The position numbers were made by a program, and so were the translations under genes. A stretch of 64,000 nucleotides of DNA, taken from the NCBI GenBank assembly GCA_043822665.1, contig JBDRBM010000024.1, positions 2,056 to 66,055 on the forward strand, read 5' to 3'. This stretch comes from Candidatus Omnitrophota bacterium. GTDB taxonomy: Bacteria > Omnitrophota > Gorgyraeia > Gorgyraeales > Gorgyraeaceae. Positions 11,588-20,823 of the stretch are shown piece after piece. Each line of letters starts with the position of its first letter. Positions within the stretch are counted from its first letter, which is position 1. The notes beneath the pieces were generated by a model. That model saw only the letters and a program-made list of their open reading frames with translations. It was not told the DNA's origin and searched no databases.

Positions 11588-12274
11588 ATGCCTAAAGAAA
11601 AAATTCTTATAATCGAAGATGATAAAAATATATCCAAGTTGATCAAGTACAACCTGGAAAAGGCTGGCTTTGGATGTGTTGTGGCCAGAACAGGTGAGGA
11701 CGCGCTGGATATTTTAGATAAAGAGGCCGTGGACTTGATGCTGCTCGACATAATGCTTCCAAAGATGGATGGCTTCCAGGTTTGCAGGCAGGTCAAGCAG
11801 GACAAAAAACTCTCCCTGATCCCGGTAATAATGCTGACTGCCAAAGGCGAAGAGGTTGACAGGGTTGTAGGCCTTGAATTAGGAGCGGACGACTATATCG
11901 TTAAACCCTTTAGTCCTAGGGAACTTATATTAAGGATCAAGGCTATTTTGAAACGTAACAAGCCTAAAGAGGATGATAGCAAGAATATCCTTGCCTTTGA
12001 GAAACTAAAGATTGATATCTCCAGGCACAAGGTAACGGTTGATAATAGGAAAGTGGATTTGACCCGCATGGAATTTGAACTGCTCGTTACGCTTATGCGA
12101 CGCAAAGGCCGCGTGCAATCCAGGGATATGCTGTTAAATAATGTCTGGGGCATAGACGCAGAGCTAAATACGCGTACGGTAGACGCCCATGTAAAAAGCC
12201 TTAGGAAAAAATTGGACAAGGCCGGCAGGTTGATTGAGACAGTACGAGGAATCGGGTATAGGTTCAAGGAATAG
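11588..12274 (+). CDS. phoB: OmpR/PhoB-family response regulator
   Basis: Receiver domain (ILIIEDD, LMLLDIMLPKMDG, MLTAKG) plus winged-helix domain (LTRMEFELLVTLM, RTVDAHVKSLRKKL, GIGYRF). It lies directly upstream of a PhoR-like kinase and the pst operon. Confidence 0.85.
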   Translation: MPKEKILIIEDDKNISKLIKYNLEKAGFGCVVARTGEDALDILDKEAVDLMLLDIMLPKMDGFQVCRQVKQDKKLSLIPVIMLTAKGEEVDRVVGLELGADDYIVKPFSPRELILRIKAILKRNKPKEDDSKNILAFEKLKIDISRHKVTVDNRKVDLTRMEFELLVTLMRRKGRVQSRDMLLNNVWGIDAELNTRTVDAHVKSLRKKLDKAGRLIETVRGIGYRFKE

Positions 12275-12283
12275 GAATAAATA

Positions 12284-14080
12284 TTGAAAATAAAGATTCA
12301 TTATAAGATTACTATAATCTTTGCGATAATCATAGCAGGCACTCTTCTAGGCATATATTTATATCTTAATAATACCCTTCGGGAATATACATACCAGAGA
12401 ATCAAGGCAAACCTTACCAGGGAAACGTCTTTTGCCAAATCTTTCATAGAAGAAAAATTCGTAGACACGGCCGATCTTAAATACTTGAATGGCATAGCAG
12501 ATAAGATCGGCAGGAGCCTGTCGTTGCGCGCTACTATTATAAGCCTTGACGGCAGGGTATTGGGAGATTCGGTGCTTAATGAGAAAGGAGTTGAAGAGGT
12601 TGAAAATCACTTGCATAGGCCTGAAATTCAAGAAGCCCTGGACTACGGGACAGGAGAGGCGAGAAGATTCTCTTCGACTGTGAAAAAAAACATGCTCTAT
12701 ATAGCGTCTACTTTCGGCAGTCCAGAGCCCCTGGGTATAATACGCTTATCTATGCCTCTTTCTGAGATAGAACTCCTGTCCGGCCATTTAAAGCGGATGC
12801 TTATAGCATTGCTTTTTCTCGCGTTTATCTTTGCCATGATAATCAGTTTTATAGCTTCGGCTATGATCTCAAGGCCGATAAAACAAATGTCCCTGATAGC
12901 GAATTCCGTAGCCAGCGGGGATTTCTCGAAGAGTATTTCTGTTTCAACCAATGACGAGATAGAGGACCTTGCGCATTCATTTAATTATATGTCACAAGAG
13001 ATATGCTCGAGAATTGAAGAGATTTCATCCAACAGGCTGAGATTGGAAACAGTTCTTTTGAGCATGTTTGAAGGCGTGATAGTGCTTGATGCTAAAGGAG
13101 CAATAGCCCTGATGAATCAGACCCTCAGGGATTTATTAGTTCTTGGAGGGGAACCAGTTGGGAAAAAGCCTATAGAGGTCATACGTAATGTTGAAGTCCA
13201 GGAGATCGCGGAAAAGACCTTGACGTTAGATAGGGGAGTAGAGACGAAAGAGGTCAAGGTCTTGTTTCCAAAGGAAAAGATTTTACTGGTGCATGGAACG
13301 CCTGTCAGGAGAGATGAAAGGGTGGACGGTGCTGTTTTGGTGTTCCATGATATTACTGAATTGAGGCGGTTCGAGATGATCCGCCAGGATTTTGTGGCAA
13401 ATGTTTCCCATGAACTGAGGACACCAGTTGCCAGTATCAAGGGTTACGCGGAGACCCTGTTGGAAGGGGCATTGGAAGATAAAAAGAATGCGCATGATTT
13501 TCTGGAGATAATCCATTCGGATTCTGAGCGCCTTGCCAAACTTATAGATGATATCCTGGAATTATCCAGGATAGAATCAGGCGCGCTTAAGATGATGCTA
13601 AAACCTTACCGCGTAGGACCTATTGTCAAAAGGGCGTTATCAAGCATTAAAAAACAGGTCAGCGCTAAATCTTTAAACATGGAAATGGATATCCCTGAGA
13701 CTTTGCCGGATATCCTGGCGGACGAGGAACAGCTTTTGCGAGTATTTTTAAATCTAATGGACAACGCGGTAAAATATAACAAAGATAAAGGAAAGATAGC
13801 TGTATCAGCATCGGAAAAAGGCGGTTTCATAGAGATACGTGTTTCTGATACAGGAATAGGTATCCCGGAAAAGGACCTGCCCAGGCTATTTGAGAGGTTC
13901 TACCGTGTTGATAAGGCGCGCTCACGGGAGTTAGGCGGCACAGGCCTTGGCCTTTCCATAGTCAAGCATATTGTCCTGTCTCACGGCGGCGAGGTCTCTG
14001 TCAAAAGCGCCCTTGACCAAGGCTCCACCTTCAGTTTTACCATCCCCAAGGCTCAGGAAAATTCCTCTACTGTAAAATAA
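12284..14080 (+). CDS. phoR: PhoR-like sensor histidine kinase (TM, HAMP, PAS, HisKA, HATPase)
   Basis: FVANVSHELRTP (H-box), NLMDNAVKY (N), DTGIGI (G1), GGTGLGLSIV (G2). TTG start. Confidence 0.85.
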   Translation: MKIKIHYKITIIFAIIIAGTLLGIYLYLNNTLREYTYQRIKANLTRETSFAKSFIEEKFVDTADLKYLNGIADKIGRSLSLRATIISLDGRVLGDSVLNEKGVEEVENHLHRPEIQEALDYGTGEARRFSSTVKKNMLYIASTFGSPEPLGIIRLSMPLSEIELLSGHLKRMLIALLFLAFIFAMIISFIASAMISRPIKQMSLIANSVASGDFSKSISVSTNDEIEDLAHSFNYMSQEICSRIEEISSNRLRLETVLLSMFEGVIVLDAKGAIALMNQTLRDLLVLGGEPVGKKPIEVIRNVEVQEIAEKTLTLDRGVETKEVKVLFPKEKILLVHGTPVRRDERVDGAVLVFHDITELRRFEMIRQDFVANVSHELRTPVASIKGYAETLLEGALEDKKNAHDFLEIIHSDSERLAKLIDDILELSRIESGALKMMLKPYRVGPIVKRALSSIKKQVSAKSLNMEMDIPETLPDILADEEQLLRVFLNLMDNAVKYNKDKGKIAVSASEKGGFIEIRVSDTGIGIPEKDLPRLFERFYRVDKARSRELGGTGLGLSIVKHIVLSHGGEVSVKSALDQGSTFSFTIPKAQENSSTVK

Positions 14081-14177: not shown

Positions 14178-15458
14178 ATGAACAGCAAGAGAAAGTTTTA
14201 TTTAGTGGTAAGTTTTTTGTTGGCAGTGTTCGTAGTGCCTGGTCTTTGTTTCGCAGGCGAGATCGATATATTGGTCGCTAAACTTGTAGAAAAAGGAATA
14301 TTGACTCAAGACGAGGCAGAAGAGATTGTTACGGAAACAAAAAAGGAACTCAAGGAGGAGACAGCAAAAGACGAGTCTGATATTATTCCTAAATGGGTCC
14401 AGAACATAAAAATGAAAGGGGACTTGAGGACGCGTTATCAGTGGGAGACACTGAAAGGCAGTGGTGAGAATGAAAGGGTCAGGGTCAGATTAAGGCTTGG
14501 TATGGATGCCAAGGTCAATGAAAAGGCCAATGCCCACGTTCAGCTGGCTACAGGCTCCAGGAACGATCTTCGCTCGACCAACCAGACTCTCGGAGGCAAT
14601 TCCAACGAAGCCTTTGGCCACTATGACATCTGGTTAGACCAGGCATACATGAATTACGCGGCAATGCCGTGGCTTACCATGATGGCCGGTAAGATGCCGT
14701 TAAAAGAAGTATTCTGGGAAACAGGGGACATGCTTTTTGATACTGACATAAATCCTGACGGCACAACGGTCAAATTTGACAAGCCATTGAATGACAATAT
14801 AGGCCTATTCGCCGACGCTGGATGGTGGGTCCTGCAGGATGGCGGTGCAGGCTCGGCAGATGTTACGATGGTCTATCTTCAACCGGGCATAGGCGTAAAC
14901 TTGAATGAAAAAACAAAGCTCAAGACAGCGGTAGGATACATGCAATACAACAACCTGAAGGGAAAAGACCTGGACGTAACAGTAAGTTCTAAATCCAGCG
15001 ACACAAATTCCACAGACGCAGGAGGAGGGTTGAAATACGACTTCAATTCATGGGTTGTTAACGCCGAGTTGGGTATAGATGAGCCGTTTTCTTTTCTCCC
15101 CGCTATTCCTTATATATCGCTATTCGGTGATTACGTGAATAATCCTGATCCGGACAGCGGTAATACCGGATATCTGGTCGGCTGTAAATTCGGCGCAAAA
15201 AAGGTTAAAGAAGGACAATGGCAGGGAAAATATATGTACAGGCATGTCGGAGAAGACGCGGTGCTTGATATATTTCCGGATTCTGACTGCCTTGGCGGTG
15301 CCACTGATGTAAAATCGCACGAACTTGTCTGGGAATATGGATTAGGCAAGAGTCTGATATTCGAGTTGGATTATTGCCTCAGTGAGCGCATAAAGGCCTC
15401 GGAAGATAATTACTCCAAGGAACATCTTTTGCAGGCGGATGTAGTGTATAGTTTTTGA
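14178..15458 (+). CDS. Outer-membrane beta-barrel porin (putatively phosphate/anion-selective, from Pho context)
   Basis: Signal peptide MNSKRKFYLVVSFLLAVFVVPGLCFA, alternating beta-strand-like pattern, C-terminal ...DVVYSF. It sits between phoBR and pstS behind a Pho-box-like repeat. Confidence 0.55.
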   Translation: MNSKRKFYLVVSFLLAVFVVPGLCFAGEIDILVAKLVEKGILTQDEAEEIVTETKKELKEETAKDESDIIPKWVQNIKMKGDLRTRYQWETLKGSGENERVRVRLRLGMDAKVNEKANAHVQLATGSRNDLRSTNQTLGGNSNEAFGHYDIWLDQAYMNYAAMPWLTMMAGKMPLKEVFWETGDMLFDTDINPDGTTVKFDKPLNDNIGLFADAGWWVLQDGGAGSADVTMVYLQPGIGVNLNEKTKLKTAVGYMQYNNLKGKDLDVTVSSKSSDTNSTDAGGGLKYDFNSWVVNAELGIDEPFSFLPAIPYISLFGDYVNNPDPDSGNTGYLVGCKFGAKKVKEGQWQGKYMYRHVGEDAVLDIFPDSDCLGGATDVKSHELVWEYGLGKSLIFELDYCLSERIKASEDNYSKEHLLQADVVYSF

Positions 15459-15484
15459 ATAAAAACTATACACTTTTTATTTTA
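15443..15484 (+). terminator. Rho-independent terminator after the porin gene
   Basis: AGTGTATAGTTTTT-GAAT-AAAAACTATACACT followed by TTTTTATTTT. The left arm overlaps the last codons. Confidence 0.8.
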
Positions 15485-15555: not shown

Positions 15556-16410
15556 ATGCTTAAGAAATTGTTATTTGTTTTAGTTTTGTCAATGCTTGCT
15601 GTGCCTGTGTTTGCCGCCTCTGGGAAAAACATGATACAGGTCAAGGGGTCTGATACCATGGTCAACTTAGGCCAGGCATGGGCTGAGAGGTATATGGAAG
15701 AGAACCCCGGAGAATTTATTGCTGTAACAGGCGGTGGTTCCGGTACGGGATTTTCAAGCCTCATAAGCGGCACATGCGATATTGCCATGGCCTCAAGGAA
15801 TATCAAAGATAAAGAAATTGTCCTTGCGGAACAGAGAGGCATAAAACCTAATGAGATAAAGGCAGCCCTGGATGGCCTGGCAGTAGTGGTGAATCCTGCG
15901 AATCCAGTTTCCGAGCTTACCATAGACCAGCTTGCAGGTATCTTTACAGGAAGGATTTCAAATTGGAAAGACGTGGGCGGCAATGATGAGAAGATCGTGA
16001 TCCTTTCGCGCGAGGTGAATTCAGGGACGCACGTTTATTTTAAGGAACATGTGCTAAGGAAAGGCGATCCCAATTCCACAGAAGAATACGCGCCGCGCGC
16101 CCTTCTTCTCTCGTCCTCTCAGGCGATTGCCGATGAAGTGGCTGGGAATCCAGCCGCGATAGGTTACTATGGGATGGGGTATATCTATAAAAAACAAAAA
16201 TCCATAGCAGTCGCAAAAGATAAGGACTCAGAATACATAGAGCCCACAATAGAAAATGTAGTAAAGGGAAGATATTCCATATCAAGGCCGTTATTCTTGT
16301 ATACAAATGGTATGCCTCAGGACCTGGTAAAGAAATTCGTAGATTTTGTGCTGTCAAAAGAGGGGCAGGATATTGTTTTGGCTACTGATTTTGTCCCAAT
16401 TAAAAAATAA
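15556..16410 (+). CDS. pstS: Phosphate ABC transporter substrate-binding protein
   Basis: Signal peptide, then GSDTM, GGGSGTG, ASR, SREVNSGT motifs of PstS/PBP2. Confidence 0.9.
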   Translation: MLKKLLFVLVLSMLAVPVFAASGKNMIQVKGSDTMVNLGQAWAERYMEENPGEFIAVTGGGSGTGFSSLISGTCDIAMASRNIKDKEIVLAEQRGIKPNEIKAALDGLAVVVNPANPVSELTIDQLAGIFTGRISNWKDVGGNDEKIVILSREVNSGTHVYFKEHVLRKGDPNSTEEYAPRALLLSSSQAIADEVAGNPAAIGYYGMGYIYKKQKSIAVAKDKDSEYIEPTIENVVKGRYSISRPLFLYTNGMPQDLVKKFVDFVLSKEGQDIVLATDFVPIKK

Positions 16411-17276
16411 TGCGTAAGATCAAAGAATTTATCATTGAAAAGCTCATACTAATCTGCGGAGTTACTTCGATATTTTTTGTAGTATTGATATTCTTATTTC
16501 TCCTAAAAGAAGGCCTGGCGATATTCAAGACTGTAAGCCCTTTTAAATTTCTCTTCGGTGAAAAGTGGTATCCTATTTCAGAGCCAGGCCAATTCGGGAT
16601 ACTTCCTCTTATATTAGGCTCGCTCATGGTTACAATAGGCGCGGCAGTCATCTCTGTTCCTATAGGAGTAGCCTGTGCGGTTTATATCGCGGAGATAGCC
16701 CCTACTCAAATAAAGGAAATCCTCAAAGGCGGCATAGAGCTATTAGCTGCCATACCAAGCGTTGTCCTGGGTTTTATAGGTATGGTGACACTCGTGCCAT
16801 TGGTAAAAAATATTTTTCATTTGCCTACTGGTCTTACTGCTTTGTCAGGTTCAATAATGCTGGCGTTTATGGCCATGCCGACCATAGTCTCAATAGCCGA
16901 GGACGCGCTTTATTCAGTTCCAAAAAATTATAAAGAAGGTGCCTTTGCGCTGGGGGCAACGCACTGGCAGATGATATACAGGGTAATGCTACCTGCGGCC
17001 TCGAGCGGCATCTTCGCTGCTGTGATGCTTGGTATAGGGAGGGTAATCGGAGAGACAATGGCAGTAATGATGATCACAGGGAATGCCGCTGTTATACCTC
17101 ACAGCATCTTAGTGCCGGTCAGGACCCTTACTGCCACTATTGCGGCTGAAATGGGAGAGGCAGTGGTCGGGAGCGAGCATTACTTTGCCTTATTTGCTAT
17201 CGGCATAGTCCTGTTTCTAATCAGTTTCGCGGTAAATGTGACAGCAGACTTATTTTTACATAAGAGGCAGAGATGA
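16410..17276 (+). CDS. pstC: Phosphate ABC transporter permease PstC
   Basis: 6-TM permease with the EAA-type loop (EDALYSVPKNYKEGAFALGATHWQ). Operon position after pstS. Confidence 0.9.
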   Translation: MRKIKEFIIEKLILICGVTSIFFVVLIFLFLLKEGLAIFKTVSPFKFLFGEKWYPISEPGQFGILPLILGSLMVTIGAAVISVPIGVACAVYIAEIAPTQIKEILKGGIELLAAIPSVVLGFIGMVTLVPLVKNIFHLPTGLTALSGSIMLAFMAMPTIVSIAEDALYSVPKNYKEGAFALGATHWQMIYRVMLPAASSGIFAAVMLGIGRVIGETMAVMMITGNAAVIPHSILVPVRTLTATIAAEMGEAVVGSEHYFALFAIGIVLFLISFAVNVTADLFLHKRQR

Positions 17277-17350: not shown

Positions 17351-18199
17351 ATGAGAAACCCTTATAGGACACAGAGGATAGCGTTTTTCTTTTTATTTTT
17401 AGCGACCCTATTGATAGTGGTGCCGGTGGGTTTGATTATCGTAATTATTATTCAGAAGGGCCTGCCCGGCATAAGTTGGGAATTCCTTTCAGATATGCCG
17501 AGACAGGGCATGCGCGCGGGAGGGATATTCCCGGCAATAGTAGGGTCTATATATTTAGTGACAGGCGCTGTTGTATTTGCCCTACCCATAGGGCTCCTGG
17601 CAGCAATATATCTGAGTGAATACGCGAAAGAGAATTTTCTTACAAGGCTTATAAAGTTAGCTATCATTAATCTTTCAGGTGTGCCGTCGGTGGTCTACGG
17701 GCTTTTTGGTTTGGCTATTTTTGTGGTATTTTTCAAATTTGGCGCGTCAATACTTTCAGGTTCGCTTACGTTAAGCATTATGATACTCCCTATAATTATT
17801 ACTACTTCACGCGAAGCCCTGGAAAGTGTACCTTATTCATTCCGCGAGGTGAGCCTGTCTCTGGGCGCGAGTAAATGGCAGACAATAAGACATATTGTCC
17901 TACCCAATGCCATACCAGGCATATTGACAGGGACTATACTGGGCCTGGGTAGGGCTGCCGGCGAGACAGCGCCTATTTTGTTTACAGTGGCTGCTTTTTA
18001 CCTGCCGAAACTGCCGCATTCTATCTTTGATCAGGCAATGGCGCTCCCCTATCACCTATATGTTATTTCAACCCAGGTGCCGAATGTCGATGAAAAAATA
18101 AGGTACGGGACTGCTTTTGTGCTCCTGGCAATGGTTTTATTTATGAATCTCGTGGCAATCGTCATCCGTTATAAATTCAGAAAGAAGAAAAAATGGTGA
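17351..18199 (+). CDS. pstA: Phosphate ABC transporter permease PstA
   Basis: REALESVPYSFREVSLSLGASKWQTI, GRAAGETAP. Operon position. Confidence 0.9.
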   Translation: MRNPYRTQRIAFFFLFLATLLIVVPVGLIIVIIIQKGLPGISWEFLSDMPRQGMRAGGIFPAIVGSIYLVTGAVVFALPIGLLAAIYLSEYAKENFLTRLIKLAIINLSGVPSVVYGLFGLAIFVVFFKFGASILSGSLTLSIMILPIIITTSREALESVPYSFREVSLSLGASKWQTIRHIVLPNAIPGILTGTILGLGRAAGETAPILFTVAAFYLPKLPHSIFDQAMALPYHLYVISTQVPNVDEKIRYGTAFVLLAMVLFMNLVAIVIRYKFRKKKKW

Positions 18200-18939
18200 A
18201 ATTTGAGATAAAAAACCTGAATATCTGGTTTGGGCCTTTGCATGTATTGAAGGACGTAAATATAGATGTCCAGGCCAATGAGATACTAAGCGTGATCGGA
18301 CCCGCTAATAGCGGCAAGACAACTTTTTTAAGGATGTTGAACCGGATGAACGAGCTTGAACCGGATTTCAGAATGTCAGGAGAGGTAAATTTCGAAAAAG
18401 ATGATATCGGTAGGATGGATGTAGAATTATTGCGTCGGAAAGTGGGCATGGTATTTGCTTTGCCCCTGCCTCTCCCCCTGTCTATATTTGATAACGTGGC
18501 TTACGGGATGAGGATGCATGGCATAAAGAGCAAGAGTAAAGTAAAGGCTAAAGCAGAGGAAGCCTTGAGACAGGGATATTTATGGGATGAGGTAAAAGAT
18601 AGATTAAACGAATCAGCTTTTAAATTATCCGGCGGCCAACAGCAGCGTCTTTGTATCGCAAGGACGCTCGCGGTCGAACCGGACGTCATTTTATTTGACG
18701 AGCCATGTTCAGGGCTGGATCCTATTTCTACGGCAAAAGTAGAAGACGCAATGATAAAATTAAAACAGCAATATACCATTGTTTTGGTAACCAATAATGT
18801 AAAACAGGCAGCGAGGGTAGGGGACAGGACAGCCTTCTTTTTGAACGGAGAACTAATTGAGATGGATAAAACAGACAGGATATTTACCGCGCCGCGCGAT
18901 AAGCGGACAGACGGTTACATAAGAGGGAAATTTGGTTAA
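18193..18939 (+). CDS. pstB: Phosphate ABC transporter ATP-binding protein, divergent copy 1 (Q-loop and H-loop substituted)
   Basis: Walker A GPANSGKT, signature LSGGQQQRL and Walker B ILFDEP are intact. The Q-loop reads VGMVFALP (Q to A, codon 18457-18459). The H-loop reads LVTNN (H to N, codon 18793-18795). Confidence 0.85.
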
Positions 18940-19694
18940 TGGCAAAGATAGTCACTAAAAACTTAAATCTATGGTATGGAGATTTTCACGCCCTGAAGGA
19001 CATAAACTCTAATTTTGAAGCAAAGAGGATTACTGCTATAATAGGGCCTTCAGGGTGTGGTAAGTCGACATTGCTCAGGGTCTTTAACCGGATGAATGAT
19101 CTCATAGATGGCGTGCGTACCAGAGGTGAGGTTTCGCTCGAGGGAGCCAATATCTTAAATCCTCACACGGATCTCGTTAAGTTGCGCAGAAAAGTTGGCA
19201 TGGTTTTTCAAAGACCCAATCCATTCCCTTTATCCATTTATGAAAATATTGTATTCGGAGAAAAGATTCACGGGGATAATACAAAACGGGACAGATTGAA
19301 TGAGATTGCTGAAAAGAGCTTAAAGGGCGTTCTTTTGTGGGAGGAGTTAAAGGATAAGCTGAATCGCTCGGCTCTGTCATTATCGTTAGAGCAAAGACAG
19401 AGGCTCTGCATCGCAAGGCTTCTCGCTGTAACGCCTGATGTGTTATTGATGGATGAGCCTTGCTCTGCCTTAGATCCTCAGGCGACTGCCAGGATAGAAG
19501 AATTAATGCGTGAATTAAAAAATAATTATACTATAATAATAGTGACGCATAACATGCAGCAGGCTGCCCGTGTTTCAGATGATACGGGTTTTATGCTTCT
19601 GGGTGAATTGATAGAGTTCGGAAAGACGCAGGATATATTTACTGCGCCGACAGATAATCGTACGGAAGATTATATTACAGGAAGATATGGATAA
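18939..19694 (+). CDS. pstB: Phosphate ABC transporter ATP-binding protein, copy 2 (ABC signature degenerate)
   Basis: Walker [11 protein letters not shown]-loop VGMVFQRP, Walker B LLMDEP and H-loop IVTHNMQQA are canonical. The signature is LSLEQRQRL instead of LSGGQQQRL (19380-19394). Confidence 0.9.
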
Positions 19695-19704
19695 GGGGGC
19701 TTAT

Positions 19705-20370
19705 ATGGAACGGCATTTTGATGAGGAGCTGAAAGATCTTAAAACGGATATTTTAAAGATGGGGGCATATGCGGAGGAGGCTATTTACAAATCCATTGAA
19801 GCGCTGAAGGATCGCGATAGAAAGCTCGCCAAAAGTGTTATTGAGAATGACACCGTTGTCGATAAGCTGGAACTTGCTATAGATGAAAAATGTATAGATC
19901 TCATGGCGCGGTACCAGCCTATGGCCAAAGACCTGCGCTTTATCACAACCGGCATGAAGATAAACGCTGAGTTGGAAAGGATAACTGACATAGCCGTGGA
20001 TATAGCACAGCGTACATTGGAAATCGTGGATAAACCACATCTTAAACCTCTGGTTGATACGCCAAAACTGACAGCCATTGCCCAGGACATGGTAAAAATG
20101 GCAATTGACTCATTTGTAAAAGGCGATATTGAACTGGCAAAAAAAGTCCTGTTATCTGACGCTGAAGCTGATGAGCTGCGTAATTTGATACAAAAGGAAC
20201 TCATAGAAGATTATATGATGAAAGATGGCTCTACTGCTCCGAGGGCAGTCCAGCTTTTATTAATAGCGCGCTTCCTTGAACGGATATGCGATCACGCGAC
20301 CAATATTGCCGAGGATGTGATATACATGGTCCGGGCCGAGGTCGTAAAACATCACCCTGAGAAGCTCTAA
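19705..20370 (+). CDS. phoU: Phosphate signalling regulator PhoU
   Basis: Two PhoU repeats (A.DLERI.D.A.NIAE-type: ELERITDIAVDIAQ and FLERICDHATNIAEDV). I prefer ATG 19705 (SD AAGGGGG) to the track start at 19687. Confidence 0.9.
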   Translation: MERHFDEELKDLKTDILKMGAYAEEAIYKSIEALKDRDRKLAKSVIENDTVVDKLELAIDEKCIDLMARYQPMAKDLRFITTGMKINAELERITDIAVDIAQRTLEIVDKPHLKPLVDTPKLTAIAQDMVKMAIDSFVKGDIELAKKVLLSDAEADELRNLIQKELIEDYMMKDGSTAPRAVQLLLIARFLERICDHATNIAEDVIYMVRAEVVKHHPEKL

Positions 20371-20382
20371 AGCTAATAGATC

Positions 20383-20823
20383 ATGCCAGAAAAGAAAAAG
20401 GTTTTGTTTTTGTGCACTCATAATTCCTGCAGGTCGCAGATAGCAGAGGGCCTCCTGCGTTCGCTGTACGGTGATAGATATGAATCCCACAGCGCCGGTA
20501 CCAAGCCTGCTAAGATCAACCCCTACAGCATTAAAGTAATGTCTGAGATAGGCATAGATATCTCGGCTTACAAATCAAAATCTCTTGAAGAATTCAAAGG
20601 TGTTAAATTAGATTATGTTATTACTGTATGTGACAACGCAAAAAAGGCGTGTCCTGTGTTCCCCGGAGCTGCTAAAAACATTCACTGGGATTTAACGGAC
20701 CCTTCTGAAAGGCGGGGCAGTGAAGAAAAGATGTTGAATGAATTCAGAAACATAAGAGACAAGATAAAGAATAATATTGTAAGGGTATTTGGTAATAAAA
20801 AAGGGGGTGTAATATGGCAGTAG
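20383..20823 (+). CDS. arsC: Arsenate reductase, thioredoxin-coupled LMW-PTP type
   Basis: [17 protein letters not shown] (CX5R P-loop) and the [17 protein letters not shown] Cys pair, as in the S. aureus / B. subtilis ArsC class. Confidence 0.85.

Follow-up and report, generated by a model that had tools for sequence, protein, structure and literature searches.

Does the Pst phosphate importer always run on two equivalent ATPase subunits? The question is raised by a stretch of Candidatus Omnitrophota DNA 64,000 nucleotides long (contig JBDRBM010000024.1; the whole stretch is called the window here), in which two different pstB genes, copy 1 (18193-18939) and copy 2 (18939-19694), stand in tandem in a pst operon. 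Pst, the textbook importer for high-affinity uptake of phosphate, provides the Pho regulon with its input and is modelled with a symmetric PstB2 motor. The initial annotation of the window had taken a PstB homodimer to be the textbook picture, and the cryo-electron microscopy study of the E. coli complex does treat PstB in this way (PMC12976172). The annotation further proposed that the two copies have lost catalytic motifs in a complementary manner, such that a dimer of the two would contain one dead and one live ATP site. From comparison with the solved E. coli PstB and with relatives from many lineages, we consider it likely that the two proteins are obligate partners in a PstB heterodimer, of whose two ATPase sites one is consensus and the other degenerate.

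The two copies share 53% identity with one another, and the E. coli PstB of known structure can be aligned with each of them along the whole chain (PDB 9k3x; E values of 4e-81 for copy 1 and 3e-93 for copy 2). A protein from a Candidatus Omnitrophota metagenome-assembled genome (MAG) matches copy 1 with 100% identity. TIGR00972, the NCBIfam equivalog for PstB, has a curated cut-off of 343.2 bits, which copy 2 passes with 376.7 bits; copy 1 scores 342.6 bits, 0.6 bits under the cut-off, and its next-best family reaches only 247.8 bits. Annotation is affected by this shortfall. Both genes lie directly after pstS-pstC-pstA and before phoU, as expected of pstB, and the same order is found in related loci. 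Nothing else encoded in the window matches either copy at E <= 1e-5. Some proteins of the copy 1 kind, which we term N-type, are named 'PstB' by their sources, while others are named only 'phosphate ABC transporter ATP-binding protein'; the narrow miss of copy 1 at the PstB cut-off may explain this uneven naming.

The Walker A Lys-Ser/Thr and the Walker B Asp-Glu are intact in both copies. Copy 1 has a canonical signature, with Ala89 in place of the Q-loop Gln and Asn201 in place of the H-loop His. Copy 2, which we term E-type, is canonical in all motifs (its Walker B reads VLLMDEP) save the signature, in which Leu150-Glu151 replace Gly-Gly (Table 1). The alignments to 9k3x are gapless in every motif region. 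The misalignment that the initial annotation had named as a possible source of error is thus not seen, and its open reading frames and residue numbers are all correct.

In an ATP-binding cassette (ABC) dimer, each ATP site combines the two Walker motifs (A and B) and the A-, Q- and H-loops from one subunit with the signature of the other (PMC7756269). In PstB, ATP is likewise sandwiched between Walker A/B of one subunit and LSGGQ of the other (PMC12976172). Because of this geometry, a heterodimer of copy 1 and copy 2 would gather all the deviations into one composite site and leave the other fully consensus. We refer to these as site I, made of copy 1 Walker A/B, Ala89 and Asn201 with the LSLEQ of copy 2, and site II, made of copy 2 Walker A/B, Gln91 and His204 with the LSGGQ of copy 1. 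The proposal that all lesions fall in the same composite site holds when the residues are mapped on 9k3x and when the motifs are counted in orthologues. In one genome alone, three or four lesions would share one composite site by chance about once in four to once in eight cases, and the significance of the pattern therefore comes from its conservation and not from the coincidence in a single genome.

A scan of one genome per species yielded 80 loci with a copy-1 relative (62-81% identity). The Q-loop Ala, the H-loop Asn (VTNN) and the LSGGQQQR signature are each found in 80/80. The same holds for GK[ST] in Walker A and DEP in Walker B, and nearly all have an aromatic residue in the A-loop. Wherever the contig extends far enough, the copy-1 relative follows pstA and is itself directly followed by a copy-2 relative. 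The latter carries L[ST]LEQ in all 77 readable sequences, the Q-loop Gln in 78/78 and the H-loop His in all 76 readable sequences. Another 120 database clusters related to copy 1 retain VTNN and LSGGQQQR without exception (120/120), with Ala in at least 115. As an internal control, 14 canonical PstB paralogues encoded by adjacent pst operons in the same 80 loci all keep Q, GG and H. The fixed substitutions specific to the class are, in E. coli numbering, G46N, C47S, Q98A, K99L, F103L, H210N and Q213K in copy 1 and G156L and G157E in copy 2, and all of them lie at site I. The survey of A89/N201 and L150/E151 in relatives, which the initial annotation had put forward, therefore returned invariance in place of the random decay of one copy.

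The canonical sets beside these operons are an observation in their own right. A second, canonical pst set stands directly upstream of the operon with the N/E pair in loci L004, L009, L011, L016, L017, L020, L021, L027, L040, L060, L073, L074 and L079, and partly in L062. Where the contig reaches, this set is pstS-C-A-B with a single consensus PstB, and the next gene is usually phoU or arsC-like. These genomes thus have two kinds of Pst system side by side.

The pair extends to divergent lineages. An exhaustive search of representatives at 50% identity found more N-type proteins, with Ala, Ser or Val in the Q-loop, Asn in the H-loop and an intact LSGGQ, and more E-type signatures (LSAEQ, LTEEQ and LTLEQ). 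At one locus of 69% G+C content (L081), pstS-C-A are followed by a copy with LVFATP and VTNN and then by a copy with LPLEQ; at another (L084), a VTNN fragment is followed by an LSAEQ copy and phoU. The relatives of the high-GC N-type protein of L081 number 119; Ala is present in 119/119, while Asn and LSGGQQQR are each present in 117/119. These relatives include Sorangium sp. So ce260 (L087, CP150320.1), whose complete genome encodes pstS, a fused pstCA, an N-type copy with MVFATP and VTNN, an E-type copy with LTSEQ, and phoU. The GPANSGKT Walker A change of copy 1 is lineage-specific, the Sorangium-like group having GPAGSGKT. The invariant core of the pair is the replacement of Gln by Ala (rarely Ser or Val) and of His by Asn in the upstream copy, and of the second signature Gly by Glu in the downstream copy.

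Loci with the N/E pair span 36-70% GC and carry the labels Omnitrophota, Planctomycetota, Elusimicrobia, Aminicenantes/Acidobacteria, Nitrospira, Ignavibacteriae, Verrucomicrobiota, Krumholzibacteriota, Myxococcota and Gemmatimonadota. Phylum labels from MAGs call for caution; the breadth of the class is nonetheless real, given the GC range and the Sorangium genome. The initial annotation had expected the substitutions to be conserved if functional, and they are invariant in more than 80 species-level genomes across this GC range, with the complete Sorangium genome in addition.

Several loci found alongside depart from the usual arrangement. In Sorangium sp. So ce260, pstC and pstA upstream of the N/E pair are fused into one permease gene encoding 594 amino acids (aa) (L087:5220-7004). 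A contig from Joint Genome Institute (JGI) metagenome 3300009868 (L083:4284-7533) carries phoB-phoR-pstC-pstA-pstB-phoU with no pstS among the called genes shown. Its sole PstB (P0261) has the signature LTADERQR, the Q-loop MVFDRP and the H-loop VTHS, such that a homodimer would hold two degenerate sites; the Pst complex here may serve signalling only or be unusual in some other way. At L085:180-2783, the sole pstB (P0159) follows pstC-pstA and has the signature LSIGQQQR and the Q-loop LLAQKP. Several other representatives have LS[LV]GQ, in which the first Gly alone is replaced. The latter forms and that of L085 could be intermediates or cases of independent partial degeneracy.

Both copies are intact, under purifying selection and evolving at equal rates. 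In a set of 55 genomes, copy 1 has a mean pairwise identity of 0.693 and copy 2 one of 0.707; pstC and pstA lie higher, at 0.76, and phoU lower, at 0.55. The pairwise distances of copy 1 and copy 2 correlate with r = 0.88. In a neighbour-joining tree built with the motif columns masked, the N-type proteins form one clade (85 plus one related odd sequence) and the E-type proteins a near-clade. Bootstrap values for the exact N-type and E-type sets are weak (14/100 and 45/100, respectively), N- and E-type proteins together form no clade, and the root of the tree is unplaced; a single origin of the pair is plausible. Among exploratory mirror-tree partial correlations, that between copy 1 and copy 2 is the strongest (0.40), and phoU correlates with both copies (0.23 and 0.36). 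The values for the permeases (copy 1 with pstA 0.20 and with pstC 0.10; copy 2 with pstC 0.05 and with pstA -0.03) are too weak, and non-independent, for either PstB to be assigned to a permease.

We therefore return to what the pair might do. A PstB-N/PstB-E heterodimer is proposed to drive the Pst importer. The physical pairing of copy 1 with copy 2 is predicted from their motifs and gene order, and would be obligate because either homodimer would have two impaired sites, the heterodimer alone giving one intact. Site II would hydrolyse ATP and power the conformational cycle of PstC/PstA. Site I would hydrolyse slowly or not at all; like its counterpart in heterodimeric ABC exporters, it would have a structural or regulatory role as 'glue'. 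It would be without the two residues, Gln and His, by which the gamma-phosphate and the attacking water are positioned, and would face a signature with Glu at the second Gly position. This Glu of copy 2 stands at the position of G551D in CFTR. The degenerate site of Pdr5, in which the H-loop is also altered, has Glu at the second Gly position as well (signature LNVEQ; PMC7756269). We infer that hydrolysis would be absent from site I and that about one ATP would be hydrolysed per transport cycle. Site I probably still binds nucleotide, since the Walker A Lys-Thr, the Walker B Asp-Glu and the aromatic A-loop residue of copy 1 are conserved.

Several points weigh against a heterodimer of this kind. 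The catalytic Walker B Glu170 is kept in copy 1 (DEP in 80/80), and loss of this residue is described as a hallmark of degenerate sites in exporters (PMC7544095); site I may thus be slow and not inert. A change of the H-loop His to Asn is tolerated in the active site of MRP1 (nucleotide-binding site 2, NBS2; PMC7756269), so Asn201 alone need not end catalysis. With Glu in place of the second signature Gly, the site could be hampered in closing around ATP instead of occluding it stably, in which case site I might hold ATP, ADP or nothing. Finally, excess PstB2 can stand in for PstB1 in E. faecalis (PMC12096839). Tandem PstBs are therefore not always obligate partners, although both copies are canonical in that organism.

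Other readings of the pair were weighed against the obligate heterodimer with one degenerate site. One assigns a different task to the degenerate site, namely that of a dedicated regulatory pocket which would sense the cytoplasmic adenylate state or free phosphate and would either signal asymmetrically to PhoU/PhoR or trans-inhibit uptake. It is suggested by the conserved Glu where the gamma-phosphate would lie, together with the exchange of the catalytic His for Asn and of the catalytic Gln for Ala, and we regard it as unlikely. If it were true, the pair would provide an asymmetric, potentially tractable system for studying how Pst signals phosphate status.

It is also conceivable, if quite improbable, that both composite sites are competent, with Ala89, Asn201 and LSLEQ as tolerated lineage variants and two ATP hydrolysed as in E. 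coli PstB2. Such a motor would be in keeping with copy 1, where the Walker A Lys and the Walker B Asp-Glu are invariant, and with the H-loop Asn tolerated in MRP1. Against this, three different catalytic elements are changed, all of them in one site, with no change to the other in more than 80 genomes; a carboxylate takes the place of the second signature Gly, the position of CFTR G551D, and a Glu is found there in the degenerate signature of Pdr5 too; and the canonical paralogues of the same genomes never show these changes.

We give no more credence to the idea that the copies work in separate transporters, whether as condition-dependent homodimers or with copy 1 acting in regulation (PhoU/PhoR) while copy 2 powers transport. 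The tandem PstBs of E. faecalis do have non-overlapping roles there, and over-expressed PstB2 suffices (PMC12096839); the exploratory partial correlations also tie both copies to phoU. A homodimer of copy 2, however, would present LSLEQ in both sites, and one of copy 1 would have neither Gln nor His in either. Only a face-to-face arrangement makes sense of an LSGGQ that never varies in copy 1 and a catalytic set that never varies in copy 2. The two genes are, moreover, translationally coupled and always co-occur, and theirs is the strongest of the partial correlations.

That the pattern is accidental, with one of the duplicates decaying as an incipient pseudogene, has practically no likelihood: the slightly sub-threshold TIGR00972 score of copy 1 would fit it, but random decay is effectively refuted by the equal rates of two intact genes and by substitutions that are invariant over the whole GC range and many phylum labels, and the motif-masked tree, with its N-type clade and E-type near-clade, also speaks against it.

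The obligate heterodimer with one degenerate site can be set beside known systems. E. coli PstSCAB (PDB 9k3x/9k3s; PMC12976172) resembles the system of the window in its pstSCAB-phoU operon logic and its fold, with about 50-57% identity over the full length. It has two identical PstB subunits and two consensus sites, whereas the window encodes two different subunits that would form one consensus site. The tandem pstB1/pstB2 genes of Bacillota (E. faecalis, PMC12096839; Listeria; Niallia; PstBA/PstBB of B. subtilis) likewise stand adjacent between pstA and phoU. The Listeria monocytogenes and Niallia taxi pairs, taken from a plasmid collection, have Walker A, the Q-loop Gln, Gly-Gly, the Walker B Asp-Glu and the H-loop His in both copies. 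The E. faecalis pair is also canonical in both copies, by published alignment (PMC12096839), and the same study states that tandem pstB paralogues had previously been unstudied. The pairs of Listeria, Niallia and E. faecalis, unlike the pair in the window, are thus without complementary degeneracy. A mycobacterial review, consulted for the PstB/PhoT pair, is silent on motifs. The question of lineage specificity left by the initial annotation can be answered for Bacillota: the complementary pattern belongs to a distinct class of Pst operon and not to tandem pstB genes in general.

Heterodimeric ABC exporters (TM287/288, TAP1/2, CFTR, MRP1 and Pdr5; PMC7756269) resemble the pair in their motifs, as the Walker-side loops of one nucleotide-binding domain (NBD) and the signature of the other are altered, which leaves one consensus and one degenerate site. 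In these exporters, transmembrane domain (TMD) and NBD are fused in one chain, while in Pst, a type I importer that depends on a binding protein, the NBDs are free subunits. The degenerate site of the exporters is also usually devoid of the Walker B Glu (PMC7544095), whereas the pair in the window keeps the Glu and loses the Q-loop Gln. Reviews place degenerate sites mainly in exporters (PMC3971661; PMC7756269). The importers with degenerate sites that we found described in the literature are RbsA and NupO of B. subtilis, which share with the system of the window one non-consensus ATP site (PMC11466899). In these proteins a single polypeptide contains both NBDs, and the Walker A Lys is missing from the degenerate site, as are the Walker B Asp and Glu in NupO. 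Their substrate class and TMD fold also differ from those of Pst.

No description of a degenerate site in PstB was found in the literature searched, a search outside which most subscription journals fall. The operons described here represent a conserved and widespread class of Pst importer whose ATPase pair is asymmetric, a class that had apparently gone unremarked. By analogy with the exporters, this would be a known kind, the degenerate-site ABC heterodimer, in an unexpected setting, that of a type I importer with free NBDs. If so, the 'degenerate site' principle would reach from exporters to a classical binding-protein-dependent importer with free NBDs, and transport would proceed at about one ATP per cycle. 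The class would also offer a natural asymmetric system in which to ask which PstB contacts PstA or PstC, and which contacts PhoU. The presence of the pair in a cultivable Sorangium strain makes it experimentally accessible.

The pho/pst cluster of the window lies on the + strand between 11.6 and 20.8 kb, in the order phoB-phoR-porin-pstS-pstC-pstA-pstB (copy 1)-pstB (copy 2)-phoU-arsC-like (Table 1). The overlaps between starts and stops at the pstA/copy 1, copy 1/copy 2 and copy 2/phoU junctions are consistent with stoichiometric co-expression.

Table 1. Genes of the pho/pst cluster in the window and motifs of the two PstB copies.
Feature	Position	Strand	Basis or remark
phoB-type response regulator	11588..12274	+	Response_reg and Trans_reg_C; same gene 5' of pst genes in many related loci
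phoR-type histidine kinase	12284..14080	+	Pfam: sCache-like, HAMP, PAS, HisKA and HATPase domains
outer-membrane porin (Porin_5)	14178..15458	+	PF16930, E 5e-50
pstS, phosphate-binding protein	15556..16410	+	PBP_like_2, E 5e-48
pstC, permease	16410..17276	+	BPD_transp_1; place kept in related loci
pstA, permease	17351..18199	+	BPD_transp_1; stop overlaps copy 1 start (ATGGTGA)
pstB copy 1 ('N-type'), 248 aa	18193..18939	+	TIGR00972; alignment to PDB 9k3x; orthologue motif counts
copy 1 Walker A GPANSGKT, aa 36-43	18298..18321	+	Lys and Thr kept
copy 1 Ala89 codon, Q-loop VGMVFALP	18457..18459	+	replaces E. coli Gln; alignment to 9k3x
copy 1 signature LSGGQQQRL, aa 145-153	18625..18651	+	canonical; alignment, orthologues
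copy 1 Walker B VILFDEP	18685..18705	+	Asp169-Glu170 kept; alignment, orthologues
copy 1 Asn201 codon, H-loop LVTNN	18793..18795	+	replaces E. coli His; alignment to 9k3x
pstB copy 2 ('E-type'), 251 aa	18939..19694	+	TIGR00972; alignment to PDB 9k3x; start overlaps copy 1 stop (TAATG)
copy 2 Q-loop Gln91, VGMVFQRP	19209..19211	+	canonical; alignment, orthologues
copy 2 Leu150-Glu151 codons, signature LSLEQRQRL	19386..19391	+	replace Gly-Gly; alignment to 9k3x
copy 2 H-loop His204, IVTHN	19548..19550	+	canonical; alignment, orthologues
phoU	19687..20370	+	TIGR02135, 198 bits, over cut-off; PhoU Pfam domains; 8-nucleotide overlap with copy 2 end
thioredoxin-type arsenate reductase-like gene, low-molecular-weight (LMW) phosphatase fold	20383..20823	+	PF01451; last in cluster

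At the N-terminus of the PhoR-type kinase, the HAMP and PAS domains are preceded by an sCache-like domain (aa 38-157) that is presumably extracytoplasmic; E. coli PhoR is described as being without a periplasmic sensor domain (PMC12976172). The Porin_5 gene is placed between phoR and pstS, as it is in several related loci. A scan of the operon for promoters and terminators gave background levels, except for a hairpin with a 14-bp stem and a T-run located exactly at the porin stop (15443-15474), upstream of pstS. This hairpin could be a terminator or attenuator that divides the cluster.

The arsC-like gene that ends the cluster has TIGR02691 as its top NCBIfam match, at 138 bits and under the cut-off of 174 for that family. 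Similar genes adjoin pst operons in L004, L016, L017, L021 and L060. A plausible role for the gene following phoU is housekeeping for arsenate taken in via Pst.

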